The notes under the pieces: model-generated | The model's database searches: none | What the model saw: only the letters and a program-made list of their open reading frames with translations | Told to the model about the DNA's origin: nothing | DNA from: Chlamydiota bacterium | Lineage (GTDB): Bacteria > Auribacterota > JACPWU01 | DNA length: 64,000 nt | Direction of reading: 5' to 3' | NCBI GenBank assembly: GCA_016196885.1 | Contig: JACPWU010000002.1 | Span: 22,358-86,357, forward strand | Shown: piece by piece, positions 4,237-61,282 of the stretch | How positions within the stretch are numbered: the stretch's first letter is position 1 | Layout: each line of letters starts with the position of its first letter | Program-made: the position numbers and the translations under genes

Positions 4237-4379
4237 CTTTCACGTAATTTAAAGCGGAAGTTAAGGGGACATCTACTACCGCGGTCGGCCCTTGATCTGC
4301 CATTTAGGCAGCGGGCCTCCCTTGCTGAATTGGGGGGCAATGCAACGGGAGGGAGGCCCACTTACCTTTTGATATCTGG

Positions 4380-6715: not shown

Positions 6716-6810
6716 TCTTAATGAAAATAACTGTGAGTTGTGAGGGGTGAGTTGTGAGTTTTGAAGGTATTTTTTTACTCACGACTCACCCCTCACTACC
6801 CACGACGGGT
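6716..6810. repeat. Word hairpin: GTGAGTTGTGAGGGGTGAG / CTCACGACTCACCCCTCAC
   Basis: Tandem-word imperfect inverted repeat between the two minus-strand genes. Confidence 0.5.
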
Positions 6811-17896: not shown

Positions 17897-19132
17897 ATGA
17901 CACGTCACGAAGTTCTTGAGAAGGGTTCGCCTATCATTAAAGAGGGAGGTCGGCTTAAAGTTTCTGTGAAGCCGATTGTCCCTTATATTGAAGGCGATGG
18001 AGTGGGGCCCGATATTTGGGCAGCTTCGCGTCCTGTTTTTGATGCGGCCGTTCGCAAGGCTTATCAGGGCCAGAGAGAAATTCAATGGTGTGAGATTTTT
18101 GCCGGAGAAAAAGCTAAAGATAAAAAGGGCGAATGGCTGCCCAAAGAGACTTTAGATGCGCTTCGTGAATTTAGAGTGGGGATTAAAGGGCCTCTGACGA
18201 CACCGGTCGGTGGAGGAATCCGCAGCCTTAATGTGACGCTTCGCCAGGAGTTGGATCTTTACGCTTGTGTGAGGCCTGTGAGACATTTTGAGGGAGTTCC
18301 CTCGCCTGTGAAAAGGCCAGAGCTTGTAAACATGGTGATTTTTCGGGAGAACACTGAAGATGTTTATGCAGGGATTGAGTGGAAGGAAGGAACGCCTGAG
18401 GCTCAAAAGGTCATTCGATTTTTAAATGAAGAAATGAAATGCCATGTTCGATCAGATTCGGGTATTGGCGTCAAGCCGATGAGTGTGATGGGCTCGAAGC
18501 GCTTGGTTCGCATGGCTATTTTATATGCCCTTCAACATCATAAGCCCACGGTGACCTTGGTGCATAAAGGCAATATCATGAAGTATACCGAAGGTGCTTT
18601 TCGGGAGTGGGGATACGAACTGGCTCGCGATGAGTTCTCTGGGAAGGTCATGAATTGGGAAGAAGTTGAAAAGCATTTTAGCGGCAAGAGACCGCAAGGG
18701 GTCGTGCTCATCCATGATGTGATTGCGGACGCGATGTTTCAGCAGGTTTTGCTGAGGCCAGCGGATTACAGCGTATTAGCGCTTCCTAATTTAAATGGCG
18801 ATTATATATCCGATGCCTTGTTGGCTCAGGTAGGTGGTTTGGGACTGGGACCGGGGGCCAATATTGGAGATGATGTGGCCGTTTTTGAAGCGACGCACGG
18901 CACCGCTCCAAAATATGCGGGCCAGGACAAAGTTAATCCTAGCTCTCTGATTCTCTCTGGAGTGATGATGATGGAGCATCTGGGCTGGGATGAAGCGGCT
19001 CAATTAATTTTAAAGGGTCTTCAGAAAACTTTTAGAGAAAAACGTGTCACTTATGACTTGGAACGTCAGATGGAAGGCGCTAAACTCTTAAAATGCTCCG
19101 AATTTGGTCGAGCGATTATTGAAAATATGTAA
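17897..19132 (+). CDS. icd: Isocitrate dehydrogenase (NADP-dependent, prokaryotic homodimeric type)
   Basis: 411 aa. [32 protein letters not shown] and [10 protein letters not shown] motifs. Confidence 0.9.
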
Positions 19133-19134
19133 AG

Positions 19135-19217
19135 ACCGTACTTCGTGCTTCGTACATCGTACTTCGTAATAAACGAACGACGTACGAAGTACGATGAACA
19201 ATGTACGAAGTACAGCT
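19135..19217. repeat. GTACTTCG/CGAAGTAC-family word hairpin, copy 2
   Basis: ccgtacttcgtgcttcgtacatcgtacttcg...cgtacgaagtacgatgaacaatgtacgaagtac. After icd stop, before tRNA-Asp. Confidence 0.55.
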
Positions 19218-19223
19218 TTTCGG

Positions 19224-34132: not shown

Positions 34133-34220
34133 TAGCGTTCAGCGTACAGCGCTCAGCGGTCAGAAAAAAACTTGTTCTGTATAAACTGTACGCTATACGC
34201 TAAACGCTGTACGCTGTGTT
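34133..34220. repeat. CAGCGTACAGCG-family word hairpin, copy 4
   Basis: agcgttcagcgtacagcgctcagcggtcag...ctgtacgctatacgctaaacgctgtacgctg, between eno stop and ftsB start (minus strand). Confidence 0.55.
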
Positions 34221-35580: not shown

Positions 35581-37512
35581 TTGTACAATGGGTGCATGAA
35601 GAAAAATGCTAGAGAATATGGGACGTGGATAGGTCTTTCTTTTTTAATATTTCTCTATCTTACTTTTTATGGAATGATTTGTTTTCTCAAATACCATTCC
35701 TTTTCTTATCACGATTTTGATCTGGCCCATCACGCCCAAACGTTGTGGAATCTTTGCCATGGCTCGTGGCAATGTTCTATCTTGGGAATCCCGTTTTTGG
35801 GGAATCACGCCCACTGGATTCTATTTTTACTGGTTCCTTTTTATAAGGTCTGGTCTTCGCCTTTGCTACTTCTCTTTTTACAAACAGGGGCTCTCGGATT
35901 GGGTGCCTGGCCTTTTTTTCTCGTGGCACAAAAGTGGGTGGGGAACAGGGCCTCACTTTTCTTTGTCGCAATGTATCTTCTTTATCCCGCATTAGGTTAC
36001 GCCAATCTTTTTGAATTTCATCCGCCCGTTTTTGCAACGTTTTTTATATTTTGGACGGCTTGGGCCTATTTTGAAAAAAAGTTTTGGATTTATCATCTCT
36101 TTTTAATTTTGGCCTGTCTTTGTCAGGAAAATATCCTCTTGGGTTCTATCCTGTGGGGGCTGTACGCCCTTTTTCAAAAAAGGGGATGGCGATGGTTTGT
36201 TTTTTCAGTTTTATGGGGTGTCTTAGGCTTTTGGATTTCGACACAGGGGGTCATGACTTCTTTAAATGGAGGAAAGGTAGGTTTTGAAAATCTTTATCTT
36301 CATCTGGGACGAAATTTAGCAGAGGTTCTGTCAGCTTTTTTTCTCAAACCGAATGAGGTCTTAAAATTTTTTTTCCAGACAGATCATTTGAAATTCCTTG
36401 TTCAGCTTTTCGCCCCTCTTTTCTTTCTCTCTTTCCTGAGTCCGTCCATTTTATTCTTGGCCTTACCCTTTTTTCTCCAGCATCTCTTATCGGCGAGGAT
36501 TCAAGAACATTCCATTTACTATCATTACACCTTGGAAGTGATACCGTTCATTTTTTTATCTGCGGTGGCTGGTTTTTCCAAAATTCAACGACTGAATTTT
36601 TTTAAGAAGAAATGGGTTTTATTTATTTTGGGAGGGATGGGGGCCTTGTTCTATGAAAGTGTTTCGGGTCCTCTTCTTCCTACCCTCAGTCAAGCCCATC
36701 TCCTGAAAAGAGACGAGTTGGATCAAGTCAGAGAATCTCTTGTGAGTCAGGTGAAAAATCAATCCGTGATGGCGACATTTGAGTTTCTTTCGCATTTGGC
36801 GAATCGGCGAGAGCTTTATTCTTTTCATCATTTGTATTCTGGAAAATACACCTTGAGTGATCACGCTTATGAAATTCCATCTCATTTGGATGCCCTTTTA
36901 GTGGATTTTACCGATCCCTTGACCTTTGGCTCTTTTGATTCTCCTCAAGGGGGACGCCGACTGAGAAGCTTTTTGAAAGGGGGGGGATGGCAGGCAGATA
37001 GGGTGATTGAAAATATGGTTCTTTTTCGGCCGCATGTGATTCACCCTATCAACCTTTTCCGAGAGTGGCCTAAAGTAGAAATTTCTGAAAAACCGATTGC
37101 AATTTTTAATCGAAATTTAGAGTGTCTTCGCGTGGAATTTGAGAAAAATGTTGTTGCCAGGGGAGAAACGCTTCAGATTTCTTTCCTCTGGCGAGCGTTA
37201 AAGAAAATTCCAGAAGACGATTATCTTTGTCTTTTCTTGTCCGATGCCTCGGGACATGAAATTTGGCAGGTGATTCATCCCTTTTGCTATCGCATGGATC
37301 CTACCTTTGATTGGAGTGAGGGAGAGATTGTTCAGGAAAATTTATTTCTTTTGATTCCTCAAGGGGCTTTGCCGGGTCGCTACGTTTTGACAGGTTTTGT
37401 TTTTGATCGGAGGGATCGAAAAATTTTGAAAGTGGAAGCAGAACCTAGAAGAAAGAAGAAAGGAAACAGGGTTTTTTGGGGAACCTTTTCCATTGATCGA
37501 TCGTGTATTTAA
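35581..37512 (+). CDS. Polytopic integral membrane protein (DUF2079-like; N-terminal multi-TM domain plus C-terminal soluble domain)
   Basis: 643 aa, at least 10 predicted TM helices by eye. Family label tentative. Confidence 0.45.
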   Translation: MYNGCMKKNAREYGTWIGLSFLIFLYLTFYGMICFLKYHSFSYHDFDLAHHAQTLWNLCHGSWQCSILGIPFLGNHAHWILFLLVPFYKVWSSPLLLLFLQTGALGLGAWPFFLVAQKWVGNRASLFFVAMYLLYPALGYANLFEFHPPVFATFFIFWTAWAYFEKKFWIYHLFLILACLCQENILLGSILWGLYALFQKRGWRWFVFSVLWGVLGFWISTQGVMTSLNGGKVGFENLYLHLGRNLAEVLSAFFLKPNEVLKFFFQTDHLKFLVQLFAPLFFLSFLSPSILFLALPFFLQHLLSARIQEHSIYYHYTLEVIPFIFLSAVAGFSKIQRLNFFKKKWVLFILGGMGALFYESVSGPLLPTLSQAHLLKRDELDQVRESLVSQVKNQSVMATFEFLSHLANRRELYSFHHLYSGKYTLSDHAYEIPSHLDALLVDFTDPLTFGSFDSPQGGRRLRSFLKGGGWQADRVIENMVLFRPHVIHPINLFREWPKVEISEKPIAIFNRNLECLRVEFEKNVVARGETLQISFLWRALKKIPEDDYLCLFLSDASGHEIWQVIHPFCYRMDPTFDWSEGEIVQENLFLLIPQGALPGRYVLTGFVFDRRDRKILKVEAEPRRKKKGNRVFWGTFSIDRSCI

Positions 37513-37676
37513 AAGTGTGTCCTTTTAAGAGGAGGCGGGTCCTGTCCCTCCTCACCCCCGCTGACGGCATCGGTCTCGGTTTGGTTCTTGAAGAGTCATT
37601 TTCAAGTCTCGACCTGCTGGCGATCAGCGGGAGGCCCCCAGTCGGGCCACCCGCATCAATAAAAGGACACACTTTT
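37511..37676. repeat. R1 repeat element, copy A (MITE-like; TIR aaaagtgtgtcctttt / aaaaggacacactttt)
   Basis: Begins at the stop codon of the upstream gene. Conserved ends CCTGyCCCTCCTCACCC ... CCTGCTGGCG ... GGGrGrCCCCCAGTCGGGyCACCC shared with copies at 38.6 and 43.5 kb. Confidence 0.6.
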
Positions 37677-37741
37677 AAATACAGCATCCATTGATCTAGC
37701 CGTGTAGATTTAATTGACGCAAGGGCAAAAAGTTATGTAAA

Positions 37742-38536
37742 ATGATATCTGTCGAGATCTTCAATGAAAGGAGGCCTTTCGTGAATCTCCAACTTGCTTT
37801 AAGTTTTCCCTTTAAGGATTCAAATTGGGTGTTGAAGTTGTTGATCGGGGGTGTCTTGTCTTTGATTGGACTCTTGCCCATGGCGTTTGGGATTTTAGGG
37901 GTCGAGAGTGTTTTTTTCAGACTTCTCACTTATGTTTTATTTTTCGGGCTTTTTGTTCTTTTCTTAGGGCCGTTGGGATACGGTTTTTCCATTCTTAAAA
38001 GTGCCGAAGAGGGACAATCCCCTTCTCTTCCAGAGTGGAAGGATTGGGGAGTTATTTTTAAAAATGGTTTGATGGTCTTGGGTGTTTGCTTGGCTTATGG
38101 TGTCATTATCTGGGTTTTGGCCTGGCTGGTGGGAATTTTGAGTACACGCATCCCTGTCTTTGGCTCGATTCTCTCGCTCTTGCAAATTGTGATAGGTTTT
38201 CTAACGCTTCTCATCGGGCCTGTGATTGCAATTGCGCTTTGCAAATTGGCTCAAACGGGTCAAATTGCTGCTTCTTTTAAATTTATGGAAGTGCTTTCCG
38301 AATTAAAATCCAAAGCGGCAGAATACATCAGTGTTTCTTTGATTCTGATCGGGATCAAAGAGGTGGTCAAGACTTGCTTGGGACTGAATCTTTATCAATA
38401 CATGATGGCCGCCCGCGTCTTTTGGAAACCTGCGGCGATGACTTTTCCCTTGGTGGCGTGGCTGACCCCCTTTGCCCTGTTTTGGATTCTGATTGTTTCG
38501 TTTCGGATGTATGGGGAGATTTACGGGAAAAAGTAG
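37742..38536 (+). CDS. Integral membrane protein (DUF4013-like)
   Basis: 264 aa, 5-6 TM helices; N-terminal FPFKDSNWVLKLLIGGVLSLIG. Tentative family. Confidence 0.45.
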   Translation: MISVEIFNERRPFVNLQLALSFPFKDSNWVLKLLIGGVLSLIGLLPMAFGILGVESVFFRLLTYVLFFGLFVLFLGPLGYGFSILKSAEEGQSPSLPEWKDWGVIFKNGLMVLGVCLAYGVIIWVLAWLVGILSTRIPVFGSILSLLQIVIGFLTLLIGPVIAIALCKLAQTGQIAASFKFMEVLSELKSKAAEYISVSLILIGIKEVVKTCLGLNLYQYMMAARVFWKPAAMTFPLVAWLTPFALFWILIVSFRMYGEIYGKK

Positions 38537-38599
38537 AGGGGTAAGAGAAAATTTATATTAGCAAGCGAGAACGATAGAATTGAGTTATTGAACGTCGCG

Positions 38600-38748
38600 G
38601 GGCCTGCCCCTCCTCACCCCCCCACCGGCGGCACAGAGGTTATAGCCCCTGTGGGGTCGGTGTCGGGAAAGTTTTGAGAATAAATATTTAGAGTCGGGGG
38701 CTCCACCTGCTGGCGTCCGGTGGGGGACCCCCAGTCGGGTCACCCGCT
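38600..38748. repeat. R1 repeat element, copy B
   Basis: ggcctgcccctcctcaccccc ... cacctgctggcgtccggtgggggacccccagtcgggtcacccgctcc. Immediately upstream of the nucleotide-sugar dehydrogenase start. Confidence 0.6.
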
Positions 38749-38751
38749 CCT

Positions 38752-40095
38752 ATGACCCATTTGAGTTCTATTTTTCCGTTTAGAGGGGTGGGTGTGAATT
38801 TCAAAGATCGAGTTAAAGAACGTGATATTTGTGTGGGTGTGATTGGTTTGGGCTATGTGGGTCTTCCTTTGGCGGTGGCTTTTGCCGAAGCTGGATTTCA
38901 TACCTTGGGATTTGATCTTCTCAAAGAGAAAGTAGCCAAGATCAATCAAGGCCTTTCTTATATTCCGGATGTTGCAAAAAATCGTTTGAGGCCTCTCGTC
39001 AAAAAGGGTCTTCTCGAGGCCACTTCTGACTTTTCCCGTCTTCGAGAAGTGGATGCCATCAGCATTTGTGTTCCGACCCCTTTGAGGAAAACCAAAGATC
39101 CTGATATCTCTCATATCATTCAGTCTGTCGAGGCTGTGGCTCAATATTTAAGGAAAGGGCAATTGGTTGTTCTGGAAAGCACGACTTATCCGGGAACGAC
39201 AGAGGAGGTGGTTTTGCCAATTCTAGAGGGAAAAGGCAAAAAGGTAGGAAAAGATTTTTTTCTGGCTTTTTCTCCTGAGCGAATTGATCCTGGCAATGCG
39301 CATTATGAGACGCGAAATATTCCAAAGATTATCGGGGGTATGACACCCCTTTGTACAGAGCGGGCAAAGACTTTGTATGAGAGCATCGTTGTTCAAGTCG
39401 TAAGTGTTTCTTCCACCCAAGTCGCAGAGATGGTAAAGCTTCTTGAGAATACCTTTCGTGCGGTGAACATTGGTCTTGTGAATGAGATGGCCATTCTGTG
39501 CCATAAAATGCGTATTGATATGTGGGAGGTGATTGAAGGGGCACGGACGAAACCCTTTGGATTCATGGCTTTTTATCCAGGCCCTGGCTTGGGGGGACAT
39601 TGCATTCCGGTGGATCCCATTTATCTTTCCTGGAAGGCAAAACTCATTAATTCTGAAGCCCGGTTCATTGATTTGGCTGCGCAAGTGAATGGCCAAATGC
39701 CTCATCATGTGAGGGATTTGGTGGTGGAGGGTTTGAATCGGGAGAAAAAGGCGCTTAATGGCGCCAAGATTTTGATTTTGGGCGTCACCTACAAAAAAGA
39801 TGTGGATGATGTCAGAGAATCTCCTGCGCTTGATATTTGGAAATTGCTGTCAGAGGGAGGAGGGGACGTGTCTTATCACGATCCTTATGTTCCTCAACTT
39901 CGAATTGAACTGAAAACTTTTAAGTGTCAACCTCTGACGTCTAAAGTCTTAAAACAGGCAGACGCCGTTGTCATTATTTCCGATCACAGCGTGTTTAATT
40001 ATGCAAAAATTGTGAAAGAAGCCCGTCTTGTTGTAGATACCCGCCATGCGACTCGGAATGTGAAGAGTGGGCGAGATAAGATTGTGAAAATATAG
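38752..40095 (+). CDS. Nucleotide-sugar dehydrogenase (UDP-glucose/GDP-mannose dehydrogenase family)
   Basis: Rossmann GVIGLGYVGLPLAVAFAEAG; catalytic-Cys region GPGLGGHCIPVDP. True start may be the GTG about 40 nt downstream of 38752. Confidence 0.8.
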   Translation: MTHLSSIFPFRGVGVNFKDRVKERDICVGVIGLGYVGLPLAVAFAEAGFHTLGFDLLKEKVAKINQGLSYIPDVAKNRLRPLVKKGLLEATSDFSRLREVDAISICVPTPLRKTKDPDISHIIQSVEAVAQYLRKGQLVVLESTTYPGTTEEVVLPILEGKGKKVGKDFFLAFSPERIDPGNAHYETRNIPKIIGGMTPLCTERAKTLYESIVVQVVSVSSTQVAEMVKLLENTFRAVNIGLVNEMAILCHKMRIDMWEVIEGARTKPFGFMAFYPGPGLGGHCIPVDPIYLSWKAKLINSEARFIDLAAQVNGQMPHHVRDLVVEGLNREKKALNGAKILILGVTYKKDVDDVRESPALDIWKLLSEGGGDVSYHDPYVPQLRIELKTFKCQPLTSKVLKQADAVVIISDHSVFNYAKIVKEARLVVDTRHATRNVKSGRDKIVKI

Positions 40096-40118
40096 ATTAT
40101 TTTAAGTGCCCAGGCTTG

Positions 40119-40236
40119 TGCATTTGACTCAAATGTCGTCTATTTGTAGTCGCCCCATTCATGGGGCAATGTGTGGATTGCCCGATAAATCGGGCGACTA
40201 CGCTTGACGGATCAAGGATACTTGAGTCAAGTGTAT
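40119..40236. repeat. R2 repeat element, copy 1 (MITE-like; TIR ...ttgactcaa / ttgagtcaa...)
   Basis: Core gtcgtctatttgtagtcgccccattcatgggg...attgcccgataaatcgggcgactacgcttgacggatcaaggatacttgag. 10-bp stem gtagtcgccc/gggcgactac. About 90% identical to the copy at 59287-59425. Confidence 0.6.
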
Positions 40237-40243
40237 AAGCATA

Positions 40244-40600
40244 TTAAGTGTGAATCAACAGTTTTAATTCGCTCGCATGTGCAAATCGTTTGAAGTCCTG
40301 ATCTCTTGTAATTAAAGGAATTCCGTGGGCTAGGCAACTTTGGGCGATGAGTGTATCTGCCAGACGGGCCTTTTCTCCTTTGGCGAGTAGATGAGATCTT
40401 AAGAAACCGGCTCTTTCCCAATAACCTTGGTCAGAGACTAAGAAATATATTTTTTTCTTGCCCCTTGCCGCTTGCTGCTTGACCCTTGCCTTATGACCCT
40501 GTATTGTCATTCGTTTGGGGTGTTTGCCAGCTTTCGGAATCATTGGTATGATGATGCCCATCGGGGCATTTCTTTTTGCGGTGTTTGTGGCAGATCCCAT
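40244..40600 (-). pseudogene. Degraded PIN-domain (VapC-like) toxin remnant
   Basis: Only the C-terminal about 60 aa (ADTLIAQSCLAHGIPLITRDQDFKRFA) looks PIN-like. N-terminal part is low-complexity and runs through a word repeat (ttgccccttgccgcttgctgcttgaccc). No partner antitoxin. Confidence 0.45.
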
Positions 40601-40617
40601 ACAAGAGAAAACTAAAT

Positions 40618-41361
40618 ATGAACGAGCTTAAAAAAATTTTTCAAGAAATTTACAATCGCCTGATTTTGGAAAAACAGTCAGGGAAGAAAACCCTTTTTCT
40701 TCCGACCTTTTCAGAAAATTCTAAACTTTTTGCTGAAGGGGAGAAAGTTGAAAGGGTAACCGCTTCTGGGAAAGTAGAAATGTTGGGACATCGGCCTGTG
40801 GTTCAGATTGCATCGTCTTTTCGAGAGTTTCGTGAAAAGGTTTTGAAATGTGAGCGTTGTGCTTTAGCCGGGGGCAGAACCCAGGTTGTTTTTGGCACGG
40901 GCAATGAAAAGGCCTCTTTGCTTTTTGTAGGGGAGGCGCCTGGATTTGATGAAGACCGTCTGGGAGAGCCTTTTGTGGGTAAGGCGGGACAGCTTCTGAC
41001 AAAGATGATTGAGGCGATGGGGCTTAAAAGAGAGGATGTTTACATTGCCAATATTATTAAATGTCGTCCGCCTAACAACCGTACACCAGAGCCTTCAGAA
41101 ATTGAGCAGTGTTATCCCTATCTTTTGGAACAGATTCGGCGTATTTCTCCAAAGGTGATTTGTGCCTTGGGGAATGTCGCTGCGCAGACCCTGCTCGGAA
41201 CAGAAAAGACGATTACGAGATTAAGGGGCCTTTTTCAGGATTGGAATGGAATTAAATTAATGCCCACTTTTCATCCCTCTTATCTCCTTAGAAATCCGGA
41301 GTACAAACGCGAGGTTTGGAGAGATTTACAGTGGGTGATGAAGGAGTTAGTAAGCGCGTAA
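40618..41361 (+). CDS. Uracil-DNA glycosylase, family 4
   Basis: Start at ATG 40618 (MNELKK). CERCALAGGRTQVVFGTGN...LFVGEAPG...GEPFVGKAG...HPSYLLRNP are family-4 UDG motifs. Confidence 0.8.
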   Translation: MNELKKIFQEIYNRLILEKQSGKKTLFLPTFSENSKLFAEGEKVERVTASGKVEMLGHRPVVQIASSFREFREKVLKCERCALAGGRTQVVFGTGNEKASLLFVGEAPGFDEDRLGEPFVGKAGQLLTKMIEAMGLKREDVYIANIIKCRPPNNRTPEPSEIEQCYPYLLEQIRRISPKVICALGNVAAQTLLGTEKTITRLRGLFQDWNGIKLMPTFHPSYLLRNPEYKREVWRDLQWVMKELVSA

Positions 41362-41458
41362 GTGTCTAAGTGCTTAGGTGCTTAAGTTGAAAAGGAAATA
41401 AATTTATTCCTTATTAACTTAAGCACTTAGACACTTATCAACTTAAGCACTCACATGT
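41362..41458. repeat. Word hairpin (GTGCTTAAGTTG / CTTAAGCACTTAGACAC)
   Basis: gcgtaagtgtctaagtgcttaggtgcttaagttg...caacttaagcacttagacacttatcaacttaagcactcac, after the UDG stop. Confidence 0.5.
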
Positions 41459-41464
41459 ATTCTT

Positions 41465-43462
41465 ATGAACTACGCCCGTCTTTTTTTTGAAGTTCCATTA
41501 AAGCAAGGTTTTGATTACCTCATTCCTGAACACTTGCGATCCCAGGTGGTGGAAGGTTCTCGCGTCTTGGCCCCTTTCGGTCGCGCGAGGAAGTGGGGTT
41601 ATGTGAAGGAACTTTTAGTCAAGCCGGATGTATCTGAAGTGAAAGAAATTTTAGAAATTGCAGAAGGCCCTCCCGTTTTTACGCCTGCCCTTTTTCAATT
41701 GGCCCAGTGGATGAGCGATTATTACCTTTCTCCTCTGGGCATGGTTTTGAGAACGATGTTGCCCGGTCCATTTCGAAAATTTCGTTCAGCGACATCGAGA
41801 GTGAAGGAGACTCTTTTCGAAGAAGAAAATGAAATGGAGTCCCCTCATCTCTTGAATGAAGAACAGAAAAAGGCCCAAGGGCTTATTTTTAAAAGATTAG
41901 ATGAAGCCATTTTTTCCGTGGTTCTCATTCATGGTGTGACGGGCAGTGGAAAAACGGAGCTCTATCTTTCGAGTATTGAAAAAGTCTTGGCCCAAGGAAA
42001 AGATGTGATTGTGCTGGTGCCTGAAATTTCTTTGACGCCACAAACAGTAGAGCGGGTAAAAAATCGCTTTGGTAAAATTGTGGCCTTGATGCACAGCCGC
42101 ATGAGCGAGGGGGAGCGCGTTAAGGAATGGGAGAGAATTCAAAGGGGTGAGGCCCGCATTGGGGTAGGGCCTCGTTCTGCGGTGTTTGCGCCTTTTCGGA
42201 ATTTAGGTCTGATCATTGTGGATGAAGAGCATGAGCGTACCTATAAACAAGAAGAAATGCCGCGTTATCAGGGTCGGGATGTCGCGATCATGCGGGCCAA
42301 GTTCGAAAGGGCCGTGGTGCTTTTGGGATCGGCGACTCCGGCTTTGGAGTCCTATTTTAACGCAGAACAGGGAAAATACGATCTTGTGACTCTTTTGAAG
42401 CGCGTGATGAACCGGCCCATGCCGGAGGTGCGAGTTGTGGACATGCGCAAAGAATCAGAAGCTTATGGACGACTTATTTCTTTTTCCAAAACGTTAAGTG
42501 ATGAGATCAATGAACGGCTGAAGCGTCGGGAGCAAGTGATTCTATTTTTAAATCGTCGCGGCTATGCCCCCATGGTTTTATGTCCCAAATGTGGTCATGT
42601 CATTATTTGCGTGGAGTGCGATCAGGCAATGACCTATCATCGGAACAGAGAATACATGCTTTGCCATCTATGTGAATCTCAAATTCCCATTCCTCAAAAG
42701 TGTCCGAAATGCGAGCATCCTAGGCTTCATCGCTTGGGGGTGGGAACGCAGCGCATTGAAACCCATTTGGAAAAAATTTTGCCTCATGCGACGCTTCGCC
42801 GCATGGATACGGACTCGACACGGACTAAAGATGCGCATGAAAAAATTCTACAGTCTTTTCGATCAGGGGAGGTTCAAATCCTGGTGGGAACCCAGATGAT
42901 TGCGAAGGGGCTAGATTTCCCAAATGTCACTTTGGTGGGGGTGATGAGTGCAGATGTGGCCATGAGTCTTCCGGATTTCAGAATGGGCGAGCATACGTTT
43001 CAGTTGTTAACCCAGGTGGCAGGCCGCTCAGGAAGGGGAGACAAAAAGGGGGTGGTGTTGATTCAGACGCTCACGCCCTTTCATCCTGTGATTCGAGCGG
43101 CGATGGCGCAAGATTATTTACAATTTTATAAAAGCGAATTGGTTTATCGCAAACAGTTGGTCTATCCTCCTTTTTCGCGCATTGTCTCCATGGAATTTGA
43201 AGGCAAGCCTGAGCCCAAGGTCATTCAGGTGGCGAAAGAAATGAGCGTCTTAGTCAAAAAACATCTTCCCTCCTCAACTCGCGTTTTCGGTCCTCATCAA
43301 GCGCCCATTTCCAAGATCAAAGGAAAATTCCGCTGGCAAATCATTCTTTTTTATCCGCGTGGCCAATCCATTCATGAACCTTTGAGACGGGTTCTGGATG
43401 ATTTTAATCAGGATAGATTAGTGAAGGTGATGATCGACGTGGATCCGGTGAGTTTGATTTAG
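41465..43462 (+). CDS. priA: Primosomal protein N' (replication restart helicase)
   Basis: 665 aa; Walker A HGVTGSGKTELY, DExH IVDEEHE, Cys4 zinc fingers (CPKCGH...CVECD...CHLCES...CPKC). Confidence 0.9.
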   Translation: MNYARLFFEVPLKQGFDYLIPEHLRSQVVEGSRVLAPFGRARKWGYVKELLVKPDVSEVKEILEIAEGPPVFTPALFQLAQWMSDYYLSPLGMVLRTMLPGPFRKFRSATSRVKETLFEEENEMESPHLLNEEQKKAQGLIFKRLDEAIFSVVLIHGVTGSGKTELYLSSIEKVLAQGKDVIVLVPEISLTPQTVERVKNRFGKIVALMHSRMSEGERVKEWERIQRGEARIGVGPRSAVFAPFRNLGLIIVDEEHERTYKQEEMPRYQGRDVAIMRAKFERAVVLLGSATPALESYFNAEQGKYDLVTLLKRVMNRPMPEVRVVDMRKESEAYGRLISFSKTLSDEINERLKRREQVILFLNRRGYAPMVLCPKCGHVIICVECDQAMTYHRNREYMLCHLCESQIPIPQKCPKCEHPRLHRLGVGTQRIETHLEKILPHATLRRMDTDSTRTKDAHEKILQSFRSGEVQILVGTQMIAKGLDFPNVTLVGVMSADVAMSLPDFRMGEHTFQLLTQVAGRSGRGDKKGVVLIQTLTPFHPVIRAAMAQDYLQFYKSELVYRKQLVYPPFSRIVSMEFEGKPEPKVIQVAKEMSVLVKKHLPSSTRVFGPHQAPISKIKGKFRWQIILFYPRGQSIHEPLRRVLDDFNQDRLVKVMIDVDPVSLI

Positions 43463-43472
43463 ATTTTTATCC

Positions 43473-43672
43473 CATTGTGAGTCCTGCCCCTCCTCATCCA
43501 GCAAAGGAGGTTTTTCTGCCAGTGGCAGAAAAAAGCCGACTGCGGTAGTAAATGTTCTTTTTCCTCTGTCCCCATCGATGGCATCGGCTTCGTTAATGGT
43601 TTTTTGTTTAAGTCTTATGTCTCAGCCTGCTGGCACTCGATGGGGGACCCCCAGTCGGGTCACCCACAATGT
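43473..43672. repeat. R1 repeat element, copy C (TIR cattgtgagt / acccacaatg)
   Basis: gtcctgcccctcctcatcc ... cagcctgctggcactcgatgggggacccccagtcgggtcaccc. Starts 10 nt after the priA stop. Confidence 0.6.
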
Positions 43673-43763
43673 GATAAAAAAGGGGTGGTGTGGTAAAAAA
43701 AATCATCTCAAAATTAATAATCATACTATGATTGTATGATAAATAATGACGTATGAGAGGTGA

Positions 43764-43964
43764 ATGATGAAGATTACAACATATATTGATGGAGATCTCT
43801 TGAAGCGGGCTTTAAAGGAAACAGGATCTCATTCTCAGCGTGAGGTGATTGAGACAGGTCTCAGAAATCTCTTAGCTGATTTTAAAAGAAAGCGTTTTGT
43901 GAAGGATTTTAATAACCTGCGCCTCAATCTTTCTCTGGAAACCCTTAAAAAAGAGCGTTCATGA
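43764..43964 (+). CDS. VapB-like type II antitoxin (DUF2191-like), orphan
   Basis: 66 aa; MMKITTYIDGDLLKRALKETGSHSQREVIETGLRNLL. Its stop overlaps an ATG (tcATGa) that opens only a 23-codon ORF, which looks like a decayed toxin. Confidence 0.5.
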   Translation: MMKITTYIDGDLLKRALKETGSHSQREVIETGLRNLLADFKRKRFVKDFNNLRLNLSLETLKKERS

Positions 43965-44075
43965 CAAAGCTATCTTTCTTCATGCAGACATCGATTTTGA
44001 CCGAATTGCTAAAATTTGCTCTCCACAGGTAGAGAGCTGTGTCAAAGAAACACGAGAGTAATAGGTTGAGTAAAT

Positions 44076-45470
44076 TTATTTCTGATACGCCTTCTGAACC
44101 CTCTGTGAGACGTCTTTGTAGGCGATGTCGACTTCGAAGATTTTTTTGTATTCCATGACGGCTTTGGGGATTTGATTCATGGCTTCGTAGACGAGGCCTA
44201 GATGGTAGAGGACGTCTTTTTTGAAGGCGTCCATGTCTGTGAGTTCTTCGGAAACTTTTAACAGTTGTTTTTCGGCCAGGTCATAAAATTTTTTCTCAAG
44301 GAAGCACAGACCCAGATAATAAAGGGCTTTGAGCCTTTTCTGAGGATCCTTCGCAGCTTGCTGAAATTCCTGGATGGCATGATCGAACTGCCCTGCTCCA
44401 TAGTAAAGACTCCCCAGTTCGTAACGGTAAGGCAGTTGGTTAGGGTAGCGTTCGACCCGCTTTTTGCATTCTAAAAGGGCCATTTCACTTTTTTGCTTTT
44501 CGAGTTCTTGAATTTGTTGGGTGAGGGACGCATCCGTTGATTTTTTCGCGAATTCATTGCGGAGTCTAAAAAGTTTTTCTTCTGTTTTTCTGAGTGTCAA
44601 AATCGAGACTTGTTGAGCAAATCCGCCATCTGAAGGAAGAAGCTTGGCCAATTTTTCATAAGTGGCGATGGCGTGATCGTATTCTTTCCCTTGTTCATAG
44701 AACTTGGCCAATTCGCGTAATAAAGAAGTGTTATCCGGTTGATTCTGCAATTTTTTCTGAAGATCAGCCACCAAGAGTGTCAAATCCTCTTCGCTTTTCA
44801 CAACCCGGCCCTGGGTTTCCAGAAGGTTTGCCTCTTTCTCATCCCTGATTTTGTTCCGATAAGTCGAGGTGTCCGACCATTGTCCCTGTTGAATGGTGCG
44901 CATGGCCTCAATGTCCTTGAATCCTTTGGCGGCCACTGGATCGGATGAATTTTTCTTGAGCGCTTCTTGAAAATATTTTTTGGACTTTTCAAAATTTCCT
45001 TCCTTAAGATGGAGCTGAGCCAGTTGGTTTAAGACAGAGGTGTCTTGGGGGCAGAGTTTTCTCAAAATTTCAAAGGTGTCTTGCGCCGTTTGCGTCCAGC
45101 CTAAGAGAAGGGCGGTGAGGGCCAGTTTTTTTAAGGCATAGATGTTTGTCGGATCAATTTTCAAAATAAGTTCCAGTGTTTGGGTTATGGCCAAATCTCT
45201 TTTTCTCATTTCTTGAATAAAAAGAAGACCCCATAAGGGAAGGGTAAAAATCCATTGAAAAACTTTTTTTGGGAGGAGAAATTTTCCGCTTTCCGCTTTT
45301 TGAAGCTGAAGCGTTCTAAGAAGAGCCCTCGCCTTGTGAAAATCAGGGTAAGAGAGGAGAAGATTCTTGAGCAGCGTGGAGGCATATTTGAAATGGCCCA
45401 TGTTGTAGGCCTCTTTCGCCTTCTCATAGAAATCAGTCGCTCTTTGAGATATTTCGTGCTGAGATCCCAT
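44076..45470 (-). CDS. TPR-repeat protein
   Basis: 464 aa; multiple 34-aa TPR-like units with W/LG/Y/A/F/A/P periodicity, e.g. AIATYEKLAKLLP and AIQEFQQAAKDPQ. Confidence 0.7.
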   Translation of the reverse strand: MGSQHEISQRATDFYEKAKEAYNMGHFKYASTLLKNLLLSYPDFHKARALLRTLQLQKAESGKFLLPKKVFQWIFTLPLWGLLFIQEMRKRDLAITQTLELILKIDPTNIYALKKLALTALLLGWTQTAQDTFEILRKLCPQDTSVLNQLAQLHLKEGNFEKSKKYFQEALKKNSSDPVAAKGFKDIEAMRTIQQGQWSDTSTYRNKIRDEKEANLLETQGRVVKSEEDLTLLVADLQKKLQNQPDNTSLLRELAKFYEQGKEYDHAIATYEKLAKLLPSDGGFAQQVSILTLRKTEEKLFRLRNEFAKKSTDASLTQQIQELEKQKSEMALLECKKRVERYPNQLPYRYELGSLYYGAGQFDHAIQEFQQAAKDPQKRLKALYYLGLCFLEKKFYDLAEKQLLKVSEELTDMDAFKKDVLYHLGLVYEAMNQIPKAVMEYKKIFEVDIAYKDVSQRVQKAYQK

Positions 45471-47834: not shown

Positions 47835-47940
47835 AACAAATTTCCAATAACAAATGTCAAATTAATTTCCAATTCTCCAATGACCCATTGGGGATTGGAG
47901 CATGGGTCATTCATTTGATATTTGTTATTGGAAATTGGTT
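47835..47940. repeat. CCAATGACC...GGGTCATTCATTTG element, copy 2
   Basis: tccaatgacccattggggattggagcatgggtcattcatttgatatttgttattggaaattgg, after the fmt stop. Confidence 0.55.
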
Positions 47941-47946
47941 ATTTCT

Positions 47947-48487
47947 ATGAGTCCTCGTGACGCTGCCTTTCACGCCCTTCAAAATTGGGAAAAGAAATCT
48001 TTGCCTATCTCTTACACCCTCGAGCCCTATTTTTTAAAGGCGAGTGAAGAAGATTTTTGAGAACATGAGGCGGTTGGGAATCAAAATGATTCTACCGATG
48101 GTGGCGGATGCGACGAAGATCAAAAATCTTTTTAAAATTCCTTTTGACCGCATTTTGGTAGATGTCCCGTGTTCTAATTGCGGAGTTTTTGCTAAAAGGG
48201 TCGAGGCCCGCTGACGGTTTTCTATGAAAGAAGTCAAGCGCTTGGCTGCGTTACAGATTCAAATTTTAAAAGAGGCGCTTCGGCTTCTAAAGTCAGGGGG
48301 GATTTTGGTGTATTCTACGTGCAGCATTGATCCTATCGAAAATGAGGAAGTGGTTCGAGCTTCCTTGAAAGACCAAGCTCAATTCCAGCTCACCGATGAA
48401 AAAACAATATTTCAAACTCTTCAGCAGGCGGGGGGCTATTGGGCAAAGATAAGACTTTCCCTTGACAAGGGCGCTTTCCTAATTTAG
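47947..48487 (+). pseudogene. rsmB: 16S rRNA m5C967 methyltransferase remnant with large internal deletions, a frame break and an in-frame TGA
   Basis: Pieces in order: NusB-like N-terminus MSPRDAAFHALQNWEK; FDRILVDVPCSNCGVFAKRVEAR-TGA-RFSM...; C-terminal GGILVYSTCSIDPIENEEVV. The TGA aligns with the conserved Trp of DAPCSxTGVxRRHPDIKW. Canonical def-fmt-rsmB synteny. Confidence 0.6.
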
Positions 48488-48518
48488 ATTGAGTCTCAAT
48501 TAAACCCAGGAGTGTCAG

Positions 48519-53449: not shown

Positions 53450-53528
53450 CTTTCGTCGTTCGTCTTCCGTTTATAAGCAAGAAGTTAGTAACGGACGACG
53501 AACAACTAACGAAGAACGACGAACAAAA
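53450..53528. repeat. Word hairpin CGTCGTTCG / CGAACGACG (related to the GTACTTCG family)
   Basis: gtagctcgtctttcgtcgttcgtcttccg...cggacgacgaacaactaacgaagaacgacgaac, between the ABC gene and hemL. Confidence 0.5.
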
Positions 53529-53554
53529 ATTGTTCAAAAGAAAAACAGGTTGTT

Positions 53555-54832: not shown

Positions 54833-55427
54833 GAGCTCTTTTCCAACCCATTGTACAAGAAGGAGTAAGATTTTGTTCATTTTTGTTTAACTTAACTCAT
54901 TCTTTAGCAAGGAGTTAAGTTCTGAAATATTAAATTATTCTTTTAATCTTTCTGAAATGAACAGTGTCTATATATATGGGTGGGGAGATAGGACGAGGAA
55001 GCCATGTCAACGAGAGAGTATATTTTGAATCAAGTGGAGCTGATCAAGAGAGATTGTGCAAAGTTGAAGATTACGCCAGAAGAATGGGTTTCAAGATTTG
55101 CCAAGAAGTACCATGATGAACATGCTTTGCAGGTGGTTGTGGCTTAATATCAAATCAGACTTTCTGCCCAATTTAACCTTACCTAGAGATCCAGGACTTT
55201 CTTCAGAACTCAGTTCATCCCAGTTAAACTCAGATTTTGCAATAGACGCGTGGACTCAAGAGCAAGAGCTTGAGCCAGACAGGCCTTTGCAGTCCCTGTG
55301 GGATTGGCCTGAAGAAAACAAACAAATCAGGCAAACTTGTGCCAGTGGCACAAGGCAAACTGACGCGTTAGTAAATGAGTTCCTCTTTATAGCATGCAAA
55401 AATTTGCCTGTCGAGTATTTCTGAAGG

Positions 55428-59286: not shown

Positions 59287-59425
59287 GGCATATGCACTTG
59301 ACTTAAAGATGTCGTCCATTTGTAGTCGCCCCATTTATGGGGCCGTGCCCCTTGCATGGATTGCCCGATAAATCGGGCGACTACGCTTGACGGATCAAGA
59401 ATACTTGAGCCAAGTGCATATGCCT
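59287..59425. repeat. R2 repeat element, copy 2 (TIR ggcatatgcacttg / caagtgcatatgcc) followed by T-run
   Basis: Core as copy 1 with a 13-nt insertion (ccgtgccccttgc). Perfect 14-bp terminal inverted repeat then tttttttttatttttt. Confidence 0.6.
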
Positions 59426-59466
59426 TTTTTTTATTTTTTAAGGGGTTCATATGATATAATGAAAGA

Positions 59467-59862
59467 ATGAGAATGAAGCTGGTTCCTGTTTTGATTCTCG
59501 TAGTGGCGTTAATAGGCTCTTGTAGTCTTTTCTCGGGCCGCTGTTGTGCTGCCCAACAAGAGAAGGGCAATCATCACTCCTGTCATTCTTCTCCTGGTTC
59601 TGAATCTTCTGGAAAATCTAATTTGAGCCCTTGTTGCTGTACCCTTTTTTCTGATCTTCCCAAAATTCCAGAACAAATATTAAGCTCTTTTCATTCAGGG
59701 TTTCTTTCCTTTTTTCAAGGAGAAGTTTTGGTTGAGAGCTTCCAAGGTTTTAAGAATATTTTCTGGGATTCTTTTTCAGATCCTCCACCCTGGGGTGATC
59801 TTCATTTCTACGATCTTGTTTTTTCCTCTCAAGCGCCTCCACAAGCAGCGTTCAGCGTATAG
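59467..59862 (+). CDS. Cys/His-rich lipoprotein (candidate metal-binding) heading the efflux operon
   Basis: Lipobox LIGSC; CCAAQQEKGNHHSCHSS...SPCCC. Confidence 0.45.
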   Translation: MRMKLVPVLILVVALIGSCSLFSGRCCAAQQEKGNHHSCHSSPGSESSGKSNLSPCCCTLFSDLPKIPEQILSSFHSGFLSFFQGEVLVESFQGFKNIFWDSFSDPPPWGDLHFYDLVFSSQAPPQAAFSV

Positions 59863-59930
59863 CGTACAGCGGACAGTAAGAAGGGGTACTTGTTTTTCCT
59901 GTCCGCTGAACGCTGTACGCTGTGCGCTGT
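59846..59930. repeat. CAGCGTACAGCG-family word hairpin, copy 5
   Basis: agcgttcagcgtatagcgtacagcggacag...ctgtccgctgaacgctgtacgctgtgcgctg, overlapping the lipoprotein stop. Confidence 0.55.
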
Positions 59931-59941
59931 GAGTTCTTTTT

Positions 59942-61222
59942 ATGGAGGTATTCTCAATGAAATTTATATTCGTCGTTTTTTTATCATCTCTCTATTTTTC
60001 ATGCGCCTTTGCCGAAGAGAGAGAGAGGCTTTCTTTACCCGCTCTTATCGAGGAAGTTCTTCAAAAGAATCCTGACTTGAAGATGGCCGAGAAAAAATGG
60101 GAGGCTGCCCATGCCCAAATTCTTCAGGCGGGTGTTCTGGAAGATCCGATGTTGGGAGTCGAAGTTGAAGGAATTCCCACCGATACGGTAGATGTGGGAC
60201 GTTACAACGATATTGAATGGAGTTTCTCCCAGAATTTTCCTTTTCCTGGGAAGCTTTCACTCAAGAAAAAAATTGCTTGGGAAGAAGCAGAGAAGGCGCA
60301 TCTTGAATATTTTGAAAAGAAAAATCAAATTGTTGCCGATGTCAAAATGGCATATGTGGATTATGATTTGATGTTTAGAACGATTCAAATCTTGGAAGAC
60401 GATGAGCGGATTTTGAGTCAATTTGAAGAGAGTGCCCGAAGTAAGTATGAAGTAGGCAAAGTCTCTCAACAGGATGTTCTCAAGGCACAGGTTGAGTGGA
60501 CGAAGATTAAAAATCAAATTCTGATTAAGAATCAAGAAAAAGAGACCTTGGCTGCAAGAATCAATATGTTACTCTCCCAGTCGCCTGGAGAATTATTGGG
60601 AGATCCGGAACCTTTGTCTGAAGAGACTTCAGAGTTGGATCTGGATTCACTCCTTTCAAGCGCCTTGGAGGGTCGTCCAGAACTGAAGATGAAAGAAGCT
60701 GAAATAAAAGGGATGGAATGGGCGCTTCGGTTGGCCCGGCGGCAGTATGAACCTGATTTTTTTACAAAACTTGAGAGCCGACAATTTCAAGGAGCAGGAT
60801 TGGAAGAGTATGACGTCATGCTTGGGATGAGCATTCCGTGGCTGTGGACGCGTTCTCGCGTGGAGGGTGCAGTCCAAGAGGCCCGGGCCAATTTAGAGGC
60901 TGCACGAAATGAATACGAAGCAAAAAAATGGGCGATTTTATTTGAGGTTAAAGAATCGTGGGTGAAGGTTCATACCTCTGTCAGTCTGGTTAATCTTTAT
61001 CGGTCCAATATTCTTCCGAAGGCGGATCAAATGATCAAAGTTTCTCAAATAAATTACGAGACGGATAAAATTGATTTTTTAATGCTTTTGGACAGCCTTA
61101 GAACTTTGGTGGCATTTCAATTGGAATATCGAGAGGCGATTGCGGATTATCATAAAAATTCTGCGCAGTTGGAGAGGAGAGTGGGAAAGCAGAATACAGA
61201 ATTCAGAATTCAGAATAAATAA
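59942..61222 (+). CDS. Outer-membrane efflux protein (TolC/CusC/CzcC family)
   Basis: Signal peptide; two-repeat OEP architecture (LSLPALIEEVLQKNPDLK...). Start may be the ATG at 59957. Confidence 0.75.
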   Translation: MEVFSMKFIFVVFLSSLYFSCAFAEERERLSLPALIEEVLQKNPDLKMAEKKWEAAHAQILQAGVLEDPMLGVEVEGIPTDTVDVGRYNDIEWSFSQNFPFPGKLSLKKKIAWEEAEKAHLEYFEKKNQIVADVKMAYVDYDLMFRTIQILEDDERILSQFEESARSKYEVGKVSQQDVLKAQVEWTKIKNQILIKNQEKETLAARINMLLSQSPGELLGDPEPLSEETSELDLDSLLSSALEGRPELKMKEAEIKGMEWALRLARRQYEPDFFTKLESRQFQGAGLEEYDVMLGMSIPWLWTRSRVEGAVQEARANLEAARNEYEAKKWAILFEVKESWVKVHTSVSLVNLYRSNILPKADQMIKVSQINYETDKIDFLMLLDSLRTLVAFQLEYREAIADYHKNSAQLERRVGKQNTEFRIQNK

Positions 61223-61282
61223 GGAGGGGGTTGTTTTTATTCTGAATTCTGGATTCCGACTTCTGAATTCTAAAAAAGGATC
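61196..61282. repeat. Word hairpin CAGAATTCAGAAT / ATTCTGAATTCTG
   Basis: Between the outer-membrane gene and the adaptor gene. Confidence 0.5.

Follow-up and report, generated by a model that had tools for sequence, protein, structure and literature searches.

Three GC-rich elements, here called R1 copies A, B and C, lie at gene ends on the plus strand of the 64,000-nt stretch of DNA that was analysed (hereafter the window), and the question is whether they are insertions of a non-autonomous mobile element, a family of structured RNAs or terminators. Their relatedness had been proposed from shared ends in a sequence-only reading, and these ends are conserved well beyond chance. The 3' motif CCCCCAGTCGGGYCACCC has exactly three matches at up to three mismatches, against 0.03 expected, and the 5' motif CCTGYCCCTCCTCAYCC has three exact matches; with up to three mismatches the latter has seven against 0.43 expected, the four extra ones being chance matches in coding DNA. 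The internal blocks GGCATCGG..TCG and CCTGCTGGC are present as first described. The same three sites were grouped independently by a repeat search of the window, and a covariance model run with filters off scored copy A (core 37535-37654, +) at 135.9 bits, copy B (38597-38747, +) at 95 bits and the 3' part of copy C (43477-43667, +) at 96.7 bits, the next-best match beyond them reaching 13.5 bits. No reading frame is common to the copies, and the view that they are non-coding, structured, multi-copy insertions is supported.

The analysis covered ~82 kb of the source genome, and all three copies fall into a 6.2-kb part of it. Additional copies were absent from the other parts of the 93-kb contig, from the syntenic loci of three relatives, and from IMG/VR, the GTDB species representatives and the JGI metagenomes, collections in which the source genome has no self-match; no scanned collection yielded an autonomous partner element. 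Rfam 15 returned two tRNAs only for the whole window and, at E <= 5, no match on any R1 copy in 37000-44200, such that R1 matches no Rfam family. The claim that no transposase is nearby holds for most called genes, as no transposase, reverse transcriptase or recombinase occurs among the scanned genes of ~82 kb of contig (all but a few ORFs around 25.3-28.1 kb of the window).

The cores are only ~80% alike, the flanks of the three copies are unrelated to each other, and copy C is identical in four independent assemblies or sequencing runs. The copies are old and diverged, and their current mobility is thus unproven. These observations, together with the compensatory changes described below, have already largely refuted the idea that the similarity is an assembly artefact or a local segmental duplication without structural constraint. 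Such an origin would fit the clustering of the copies and a 148-nt indel that separates the window from the deposited record elsewhere, but it is very improbable.

The operon whose spacers the copies occupy (DUF4013, UDP-glucose dehydrogenase or UDPGdh, UDG and PriA) is compact in relatives. The closest sequenced relative has a PriA identity of only 64%. Three relatives keep the gene order and lack the copies: the DUF4013-UDPGdh spacer is 25-29 nt in relatives vs 257 nt here, and the spacer after PriA is 5-58 nt vs ~300 nt here. Because the three syntenic relatives have spacers of only 5-58 nt at the B and C sites, these two copies are, as judged from synteny, lineage-specific insertions.

One fold is common to the three cores. 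Helix P1 closes it and is followed by a C/U-rich strand of 16-18 nt (CCUGYCCCUCCUCA); P2 is a long, irregular helix, and P3 is a hairpin of 5 bp. In copy A, P1 pairs 37535-40 with 37649-54, P2 pairs 37557-64 with 37624-31, and P3 occupies 37633-48; the C/U-rich strand lies at 37541-56 and an inner irregular helix at 37565-79 / 37608-23. Copy B has P1 at 38597-602 / 38742-47, P2 at 38621-28 / 38717-24, P3 at 38726-41, the C/U-rich strand at 38603-20, an extra hairpin at 38632-53 and the inner helix at 38654-67 / 38701-16, whereas copy C has P1 at 43477-82 / 43662-67, P2 at 43570-78 / 43637-45, P3 at 43646-61, the C/U-rich strand at 43483-99, a 70-nt insert (module M2) at 43500-69 and the inner helix at 43579-92 / 43621-36. 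The cores, ~120-190 nt in size, have the termini GCGGGT.. and ..ACCCGC. Six to nine base pairs stay paired despite changes on both sides. In a test of the fold, 95% of cells were paired and six pairs had changed on both sides, which was reached by none of 500 shuffles; slid controls were 38-50% paired. To these six pairs the inner helix adds three more compensatory ones. The R1 fold is maintained by compensatory changes. The absence of both additional copies and covariation had been named as grounds for giving up the family: extra copies are absent from every collection scanned, and covariation among the three copies is clear. Most conserved are the unpaired blocks, with 14 of 17 positions invariant in J1/2 and 14 of 16 in the P3 region, vs 5 of 34 in the apical region. 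The folding strand is left ambiguous, because the plus-strand A.C mismatches in P1 of copy C and P2 of copy A would be G.T/G.U wobbles on the minus strand, and folding energies favour neither strand.

The fold raises a serious rival, possible but on the whole unlikely, in which R1 copies are paralogous structured RNAs (cis-acting elements between cistrons or in leaders, or small RNAs cut out of the operon transcript) that do not move. The invariant unpaired segments CCUGCCCCUCCUCA and GGCAUCGG / CCUGCUGGC and the loop CCAGUC would then be functional sites, the CCUCC strand an anti-Shine-Dalgarno seed, and the long outer duplex a stem for processing by RNase III. Helices that all three show compensatory changes, unpaired blocks that are more conserved than stems, a GC content of 64-66% in a genome of 44% GC, and insertions tolerated at peripheral positions only are consistent with such RNAs, and the co-orientation of the three clustered copies with the flanking genes fits them equally well. 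As read from the sequence, the C/U-rich strand of copy B can also pair over 10 bp with the UDPGdh ribosome-binding site, and a GGAGG segment near copies A and C pairs with theirs. However, the same spacers are empty in three relatives, and no shared regulon logic is evident because the genes downstream of the copies (DUF4013, UDPGdh, vapB) are unrelated. A riboswitch or leader RNA was rejected on the same two observations, absence upstream of the same genes in the relatives and mutually unrelated downstream genes. Further arguments against immobile RNAs are the direct repeats that flank copies A and B, the truncated relatives with shared modules on the opposite strand, the lack of a promoter and terminator pair around any copy, and the absence of homologues from Rfam and every scanned collection; covariation among three sequences, moreover, is compatible with selection in a mobile source lineage as much as with selection in place.

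Copy A is bracketed by a 10-nt exact direct repeat, TCCATTGATC, at 37489-37498 (+, in the last DUF2079 codons) and 37687-37696 (+), a candidate target-site duplication whose length was reached in 2 of 500 shuffles and in none of 300 in a separate test. With the insert removed, the sequence after the right repeat, CTAGCCGTGTAG, would give back an ORF end, ..SIDLAV*. Inside the repeats lies a perfect 24-bp inverted repeat at 37504-37527 / 37660-37683 (5' arm 37503-37527, 3' arm 37660-37683, both +; 24 nt, 100% complementary), whose 5' arm provides the present DUF2079 stop codon (TAA, 37510-37512). With this outer helix, the full insert folds at -91.7 kcal/mol (z = -9.4). Copy B has a 9-nt exact direct repeat, TAGAGGGGT, at 38534-38542 (+), overlapping the DUF4013 stop codon, and at 38781-38789 (+), in the Shine-Dalgarno region of the UDPGdh gene; this length was reached in 16 of 500 shuffles, and deleting the insert restores a 10-nt stop-SD-start junction. 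Its left outer segment (38543-38596, +) is AT-rich, lacks a partner arm and carries a weak sigma-70-like site at 38552-38580. Copy B had been said to end at a start codon, but ATG 38752 is an over-long ORF call; the true UDPGdh start is GTG 38794, 46 nt downstream, with an N-terminus (MNFKD / MNLKD) common with relatives. Copy C has an imperfect outer stem of ~18 bp (arms 43464-43476 and 43668-43680, both +; one A.C and one C/U mismatch), which starts 2 nt past the PriA stop codon (43460-62). Of the target-site duplications that the sequence-only reading had proposed to look for, candidates in the form of direct repeats are present at A and B and absent at C, and of the perfect terminal inverted repeats ascribed to A and C, only that of A is perfect, their difference between copies being upheld. 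No direct repeat lies immediately at the R1 core boundaries, and the other long hairpins of the window have no flanking direct repeats.

MITEs are shorter than 500 bp, non-coding, typically AT-rich and carry conserved terminal inverted repeats (PMC10969869); target-site duplications at their flanks, many dispersed copies and a related autonomous insertion sequence are further marks of them. The R1 inserts, non-coding and 188-248 nt long, are within this size range, but, contrary to that definition, the part they conserve is a GC-rich core (52-66% GC vs 44% for the window), and their outer inverted repeats are perfect over 24 bp in A, imperfect over ~18 bp in C, absent in B (ends pairing at only ~9/15) and unrelated in sequence between A and C. 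R1 is thus not a classical MITE family as had been suggested, because the outer repeats are unrelated between copies; since they are also absent in B, and C has no direct repeat, a single DDE-type transposase acting on common ends is likewise unsupported.

Copy-specific stems around a conserved core could also be explained if R1 folds as single-stranded DNA and is a non-autonomous derivative moved by an HUH/Y1 (IS200/IS605-like) or IS110/IS1111-like enzyme, which recognises hairpins and inserts into palindromes. The cores of A and C are exactly central in their unrelated palindromes, and the absence of direct repeats right at the core boundaries, the mismatches that become wobbles on the minus strand and the strand-neutral energies are all in keeping with this. 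In IS200/IS605 elements each end has its own subterminal hairpin, the target tetranucleotide is conserved and the target is not duplicated. In R1, by contrast, P1 and P2 join the 5' and 3' parts over 60-150 nt, no conserved tetranucleotide precedes the cores, copy B lies outside any palindrome, and direct repeats of 9-10 bp, as at A and B, are unexpected for HUH/Y1 or IS110-like enzymes. With no such enzyme gene among the scanned contig genes, and with HEARO and the other omega-RNA families of Rfam unmatched, movement as single-stranded DNA appears improbable. An IS200/IS605-derived element or a TnpB/IscB omega RNA was rejected on the pairing of 5' with 3' parts, the differing sequences upstream of the cores and the lack of an Rfam match.

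Several other classes were considered. No terminator-like site occurs in 37200-39000 or 43200-44000, and R1 is not an intrinsic terminator, as had also been proposed, because no U-tract follows any copy. REP/BIME sequences do not fit, as no 20-40-nt palindrome unit with a GTAG head is visible in the cores and no Y1 transposase is among the scanned contig genes. Integron attC sites lie 3' in mobile cassettes and consist of an imperfect palindrome between the core sites R'' (RYYYAAC) and R' (GTTRRRY); the R1 cores have GCGGGT.. and ..ACCCGC as their ends, and the flanking genes are syntenic housekeeping genes in relatives rather than cassettes. ARAGORN finds nothing in 37000-44000, which argues against a tRNA, a tmRNA or a tRNA-derived repeat.

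The interiors of the copies vary, as had been noted, but they are partly built of other repeated modules. A free-standing relative of the 5' half of copy C (module M2) lies at 4268-4345 on the minus strand; it comprises TGCCCC..CAGCAAGGGAGG, a hairpin (CTGCC-loop-GGCAG) and GCCGACCGCGGTAGTAGATG, lacks P2 and P3, and aligns locally to copy C with a score of 44. Its nhmmer E value of 6e-13 is partly circular, because this copy is itself one of the three rows that build the profile. A second M2 relative (55318-55379, +; E = 6e-12, likewise a row of the profile's own alignment) is preceded by a small hairpin, AGTCCCTGTGGGA (55291-55303), that resembles the extra hairpin of copy B, the whole spanning 55291-55379. 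Partial copies of R1 modules thus occur in both orientations, and the family is mosaic because the 70-nt insert of C and the extra hairpin of B recur elsewhere in the window.

We give about an even chance to the reading that R1 is a new, mosaic family of small insertion elements, structured, non-autonomous and restricted to one lineage, which are presumably co-transcribed with the operon. They would be "small mobile sequences" as broadly understood for MITEs, BIMEs and BOX, but defined by the folded core rather than by conserved terminal inverted repeats. An enzyme whose gene lies in another part of the genome would have moved them in trans, and they probably entered, or arrived with, DNA able to form hairpins, from which the copy-specific outer stems would stem. 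Selection would have worked on the fold in the lineage, or lineages, from which the element came. After insertion and co-transcription with the plus-strand operon, R1 transcripts are predicted to form very stable structures (-92 kcal/mol for copy A), the 24-bp perfect duplex of copy A would be a substrate for RNase III, and the CCUCC anti-Shine-Dalgarno-like strand may be exposed or masked. The processing, stability or translation of the flanking cistrons would thus be what they likely affect. A bolder proposal, which we regard as improbable, is that R1 is a new type of mobile structured RNA, whose three-helix core would be the recognised and propagated unit, entering hairpin loops or gene junctions and acquiring copy-specific outer stems; in its invariant unpaired strands would lie the active sites of an RNA that binds protein or is catalytic, and its anti-Shine-Dalgarno strand would tune the translation of the neighbouring cistron.

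If R1 is confirmed genome-wide, the known bacterial repeats would gain a type of small insertion element that is structured and defined by its core, and that comes from an uncultivated, Chlamydiota-like lineage of deep branching. It would also show, in a natural setting, stable RNA modules placed among the genes of a housekeeping operon, one with priA and a UDP-glucose dehydrogenase gene. The fold is known in enough detail that mobility, processing by RNase III and the masking of ribosome-binding sites could be tested directly. At present, R1 is a well-supported, small and lineage-restricted family that is useful as a covariance-model seed and opens no long-standing question.

Among known systems, sibling CU-rich small RNAs such as Listeria LhrC1-5 and Staphylococcus RsaE mask ribosome-binding sites; each is transcribed independently, from its own promoter to an intrinsic terminator, and different species conserve them. 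R1 resembles them in having several close, paralogous intergenic copies with exposed C/U-rich motifs complementary to Shine-Dalgarno sequences, but its copies have no promoter or terminator signal and the relatives lack them. Enterobacterial BIMEs/REP and pneumococcal BOX elements consist of modular hairpin units, lie between cistrons or at operon 3' ends and, when transcribed, affect mRNA stability; REP units are 20-40-nt palindromes with a GTAG head that are tied to RAYT transposases, and BOX elements are made of boxA-B-C modules. R1 is similarly modular and intercistronic, its small hairpin units recurring in various combinations, whereas its three-helix junction, long-range 5'-3' pairing and 17-nt invariant unpaired strand set it apart, and it has no sequence similarity to them. 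Other parallels are MITEs with a structured core, such as QMITE2 of Coxiella burnetii, in which direct repeats of 7-10 bp and inverted repeats of 23-29 bp surround a core of 113-145 nt, and the Correia elements of Neisseria, whose long terminal duplexes are RNase III substrates (PMC10969869). Unlike these, R1 conserves its GC-rich core rather than terminal repeats, no target duplication flanks copy C, R1 has no known parent insertion sequence and only three copies are seen. Like them, R1 is shorter than 500 bp, non-coding and intergenic at gene ends, its transcripts are by prediction as prone to very stable stem-loops, and copy A has the very geometry of QMITE2, with a 10-bp direct repeat, a 24-bp inverted repeat and a core of ~120 nt.

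The GC-rich folded repeat R1 is present in three plus-strand copies, with refined core boundaries at 37535-37654 (copy A), 38597-38747 (copy B) and 43477-43667 (copy C). When up to three mismatches are allowed, the 3' motif CCCCCAGTCGGGYCACCC has three matches in the window against 0.03 expected; three sites match the 5' motif CCTGYCCCTCCTCAYCC exactly, and a repeat search of the window clusters the identical three sites. The trimmed cores gave a covariance model that, searched against both strands of the window with filters off, scores the copies at 136, 97 and 95 bits, with the runner-up at 13.5 bits. The GC content of the cores is 52-66%, compared with 44% for the window. Motif counts, repeat search and covariance model thus agree that the copies noticed in the sequence-only reading are real, and it is very improbable that their similarity is an artefact.

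A single folding scheme accommodates all three copies. Helix P1 has 6 bp (GCGGGU/ACCCGC, or GUGAGU/ACCCAC in copy C) and is followed by an invariant C/U-rich strand of 16-18 nt (CCUGYCCCUCCUCAYC), helix P2 has 8-9 bp (CCCGCUGA/UCAGCGGG in A, CCCACCGG/CCGGUGGG in B, CCCCAUCGA/UCGAUGGGG in C), and the 5-bp hairpin P3 (G(G/A)CCC-CCAGUC-GGG(C/U)C) adjoins the 3' strand of P1. P2 is extended by an irregular helix built from the conserved blocks GGCAUCGG and CCUGCUGGC, in which G.G and U.C oppositions are conserved along with a bulged U; the apical hairpin is variable and AT-rich. Across P1, P2 and P3, 95% of cells are paired. This level was matched by 0 of 500 column shuffles, and pairing is 38-50% when the partners are slid. 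The covariation that the sequence-only reading proposed to look for is present, six pairs being changed on both sides among the three copies, and RNAalifold finds three further compensatory pairs in the inner helix. Conservation is highest in the unpaired blocks (14/17 in the C/U strand versus 5/34 in the apical region). The R1 core is fold-constrained and non-coding. Coding was rejected for want of a common frame across the copies.

Covariation in three sequences is compatible with selection in place or in a mobile source lineage, and does not tell the two apart. Folding energies for the plus and minus strands are mixed, and two A.C mismatches in the plus strand become G.U if the minus strand folds. 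A single-stranded-DNA hairpin element could draw on both observations; we regard it as quite unlikely.

In the loci of three relatives, the gene order is DUF4013, UDP-glucose dehydrogenase, epimerase, UDG, PriA and TPR (minus strand), with spacers of 25-29 nt between DUF4013 and the dehydrogenase and of 5-58 nt after PriA. The window spacers at these junctions measure 257 nt, containing copy B, and about 300 nt, containing copy C and then an orphan vapB. The gene before copy A encodes DUF2079, which the relatives lack at that place. Judged by sequence comparison, the R1 copies are insertions relative to the three relatives. Candidate target-site duplications, for which the sequence-only reading had suggested a check, flank two copies: a 10-nt direct repeat TCCATTGATC brackets copy A (37489 and 37687; as long in 2 of 500 shuffles) and a 9-nt repeat TAGAGGGGT brackets copy B (38534 and 38781; as long in 16 of 500), while copy C has no flanking direct repeat. 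With the inserts removed, the ORF end ..SIDLAV* reappears at A, and at B a 10-nt stop-SD-start junction of the kind seen in the relatives. The called UDP-glucose dehydrogenase ORF begins 14 codons too early, at ATG 38752; GTG 38794 is shared with the relatives, gives an N-terminus, MNFKD, that aligns with MNLKD of one of them (L080), and is preceded by AGAGGGG. Between the shared, compensated fold on one side and these junctions on the other, a non-mobile family of paralogous RNAs is a less probable but serious alternative account of R1.

Relative to the three relatives, the locus at 35581-44076 has gained the DUF2079 gene and, after priA, the orphan vapB antitoxin gene, and has lost the epimerase gene, in whose place there is a minus-strand PIN-toxin gene. 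This region counts as a hot spot for small insertions. A 115-nt repeat (40133-40245 and 59309-59428, 92-94% identity, no Rfam match) adjoins the PIN-toxin gene with one copy and lies upstream of a 129-aa ORF with the other; it seems to fold into a junction that GTAGTCGCC...GGCGACTAC close and that contains two internal hairpins. Many long intergenic hairpins with arms of 27-50 nt were also observed (6733-6803, 19131-19220, 34134-34209, 41344-41452, 47835-47940, 53450-53530, 59843-59928 and 61185-61270). Their arms are tandem 7-nt, sometimes 8-nt, units (such as CGTACTT, AGCGTWC, CAGAATW and GTGAGTT), and one hairpin stops 4 nt short of a tRNA gene (19224). No flanking direct repeats were found at these other hairpins of the window, which were examined to test whether the outer stem of copy A belongs with them. 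At about 48040-48490 (L072 19293-19736), adjacent ORFs of 56 and 87 aa both match the RsmB-F methyltransferase family, and the pair looks like a fragmented gene.

The build of R1 is mosaic. Between its C/U strand and P2, copy C carries an insert of 70 nt (43500-43569, plus strand), a nested copy of a module, M2, homologous to two free-standing elements at 4268-4345 (minus strand) and 55318-55379 (plus strand). Common to all three are TGCCCC..CAGCAARGGAGG, a CUGCC-loop-GGCAG hairpin with a co-varying stem, and GCCGACYGCGGTAGTARATG; the module also has a CCUCC..GGAGG hairpin and an invariant GCGGTAGTARATG, and is unmatched in Rfam. The homology between copy C and the 4.3-kb element begins within the C/U strand, which gives A and B the appearance of a longer C-like element that has suffered internal deletions. 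The 4.3-kb and 55.3-kb elements look like relatives without the 3' half. The extra hairpin of B (AGCCCCUGUGGGG) resembles a hairpin at 55291. The left end of B also shares a 13-nt similarity with sequence flanking the 4.3-kb element (AAGAGAAAA.TTA), which was judged no better than chance.

The window was also compared with a deposited record, JACOUD010000070.1, from a groundwater MAG (assembly GCA_016178005.1) that carries the label 'Chlamydiae/Chlamydiota bacterium'. There, the 55.3-kb element lies between two copies of a 14-nt direct repeat, AGTCCCTGTGGGAT (L082 3858-3871 and 4024-4037), which is also a small hairpin; the window has the first repeat only (55291-55303). Copy B contains a similar hairpin at 38644-38656. 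One substitution (53512), inside a long ACGA-repeat hairpin, separates the two sequences, and 148 nt of the record are absent from the window (at about 55436; L082 about 4004-4151), a deletion that shortens sucD at its 3' end, from 288 to 277 aa, and takes away the second repeat. Partial, module-sharing copies in both orientations have the look of decaying small mobile sequences.

No family in Rfam 15, searched as the sequence-only reading had proposed, matches R1 at gathering or permissive thresholds; ARAGORN gives no tRNA-like origin, and blastn leaves R1 unmatched among plasmids and phages. The covariance model and nhmmer found no new copy in the contig remainder, the three relatives' loci or the sister assemblies, and four assemblies are identical across copy C, with no presence/absence polymorphism. 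The IMG/VR, GTDB and JGI collections yielded no self-match, so the source genome lies outside them. In IMG/VR, the five inspected matches to the 3' composite motif are all coding or phage hairpins, and 20 matches to the 5' motif reach at most 24 bits with the covariance model. Among GTDB species representatives, 66 pattern matches are chance occurrences in GC-rich genomes, none with the 5' motif or CACCC tail, and three exact-pattern matches in JGI metagenomes are likewise chance. A six-frame peptide profile of the 3' block, aimed at catching spurious ORFs lying over other copies, gave 234 word-sharing candidates among 5.8 billion predicted proteins and none at E <= 10; a known spurious ORF (of L110) was likewise unrecovered. 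The closest PriA relatives are only 60-64% identical, so that calling R1 "lineage-specific" says little beyond the lack of sequenced close relatives. R1 as a riboswitch was rejected since it is not conserved in the relatives, and as attC since the core sites are absent.

The reading we favor, which has about an even chance of being right, is that R1 is a small structured insertion element, mobilised in trans, co-transcribed with its operon and acting at the RNA level. The mobilising enzyme would be encoded elsewhere, and the scanned contig genes include no transposase, recombinase or reverse transcriptase. The target may be hairpin-forming DNA. Once transcribed with the plus-strand operon, the 24-bp duplex of copy A would be an RNase III substrate, and the CCUCC strand could serve as an anti-Shine-Dalgarno mimic. 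In A and C the predicted partner of this strand is a nearby GGAGG; in copy B, CCUGCCCCUC (38603-12) can form 10 bp (8 Watson-Crick and 2 G.U) with GAGGGGUGGG (38783-92), which immediately precedes the GTG start. No terminator-like site was found beside any copy.

Of what the sequence-only reading offered, structured insertions stand, whereas terminators fall for lack of a U-tract and a classical MITE falls because the core, not the ends, is conserved. R1 is represented by three copies in one uncultivated lineage. Copy A resembles a MITE in its 10-bp repeat, 24-bp perfect inverted repeat and core of about 120 nt, a geometry comparable to QMITE2 (PMC10969869), and the folding energy of the complete insert is -91.7 kcal/mol (z = -9.4). 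Unlike a textbook MITE, R1 is GC-rich and conserved in its core, the outer stem of C is imperfect and of different sequence, and B has no outer stem. R1 belongs among the known small interspersed structured repeats, as a new variety.
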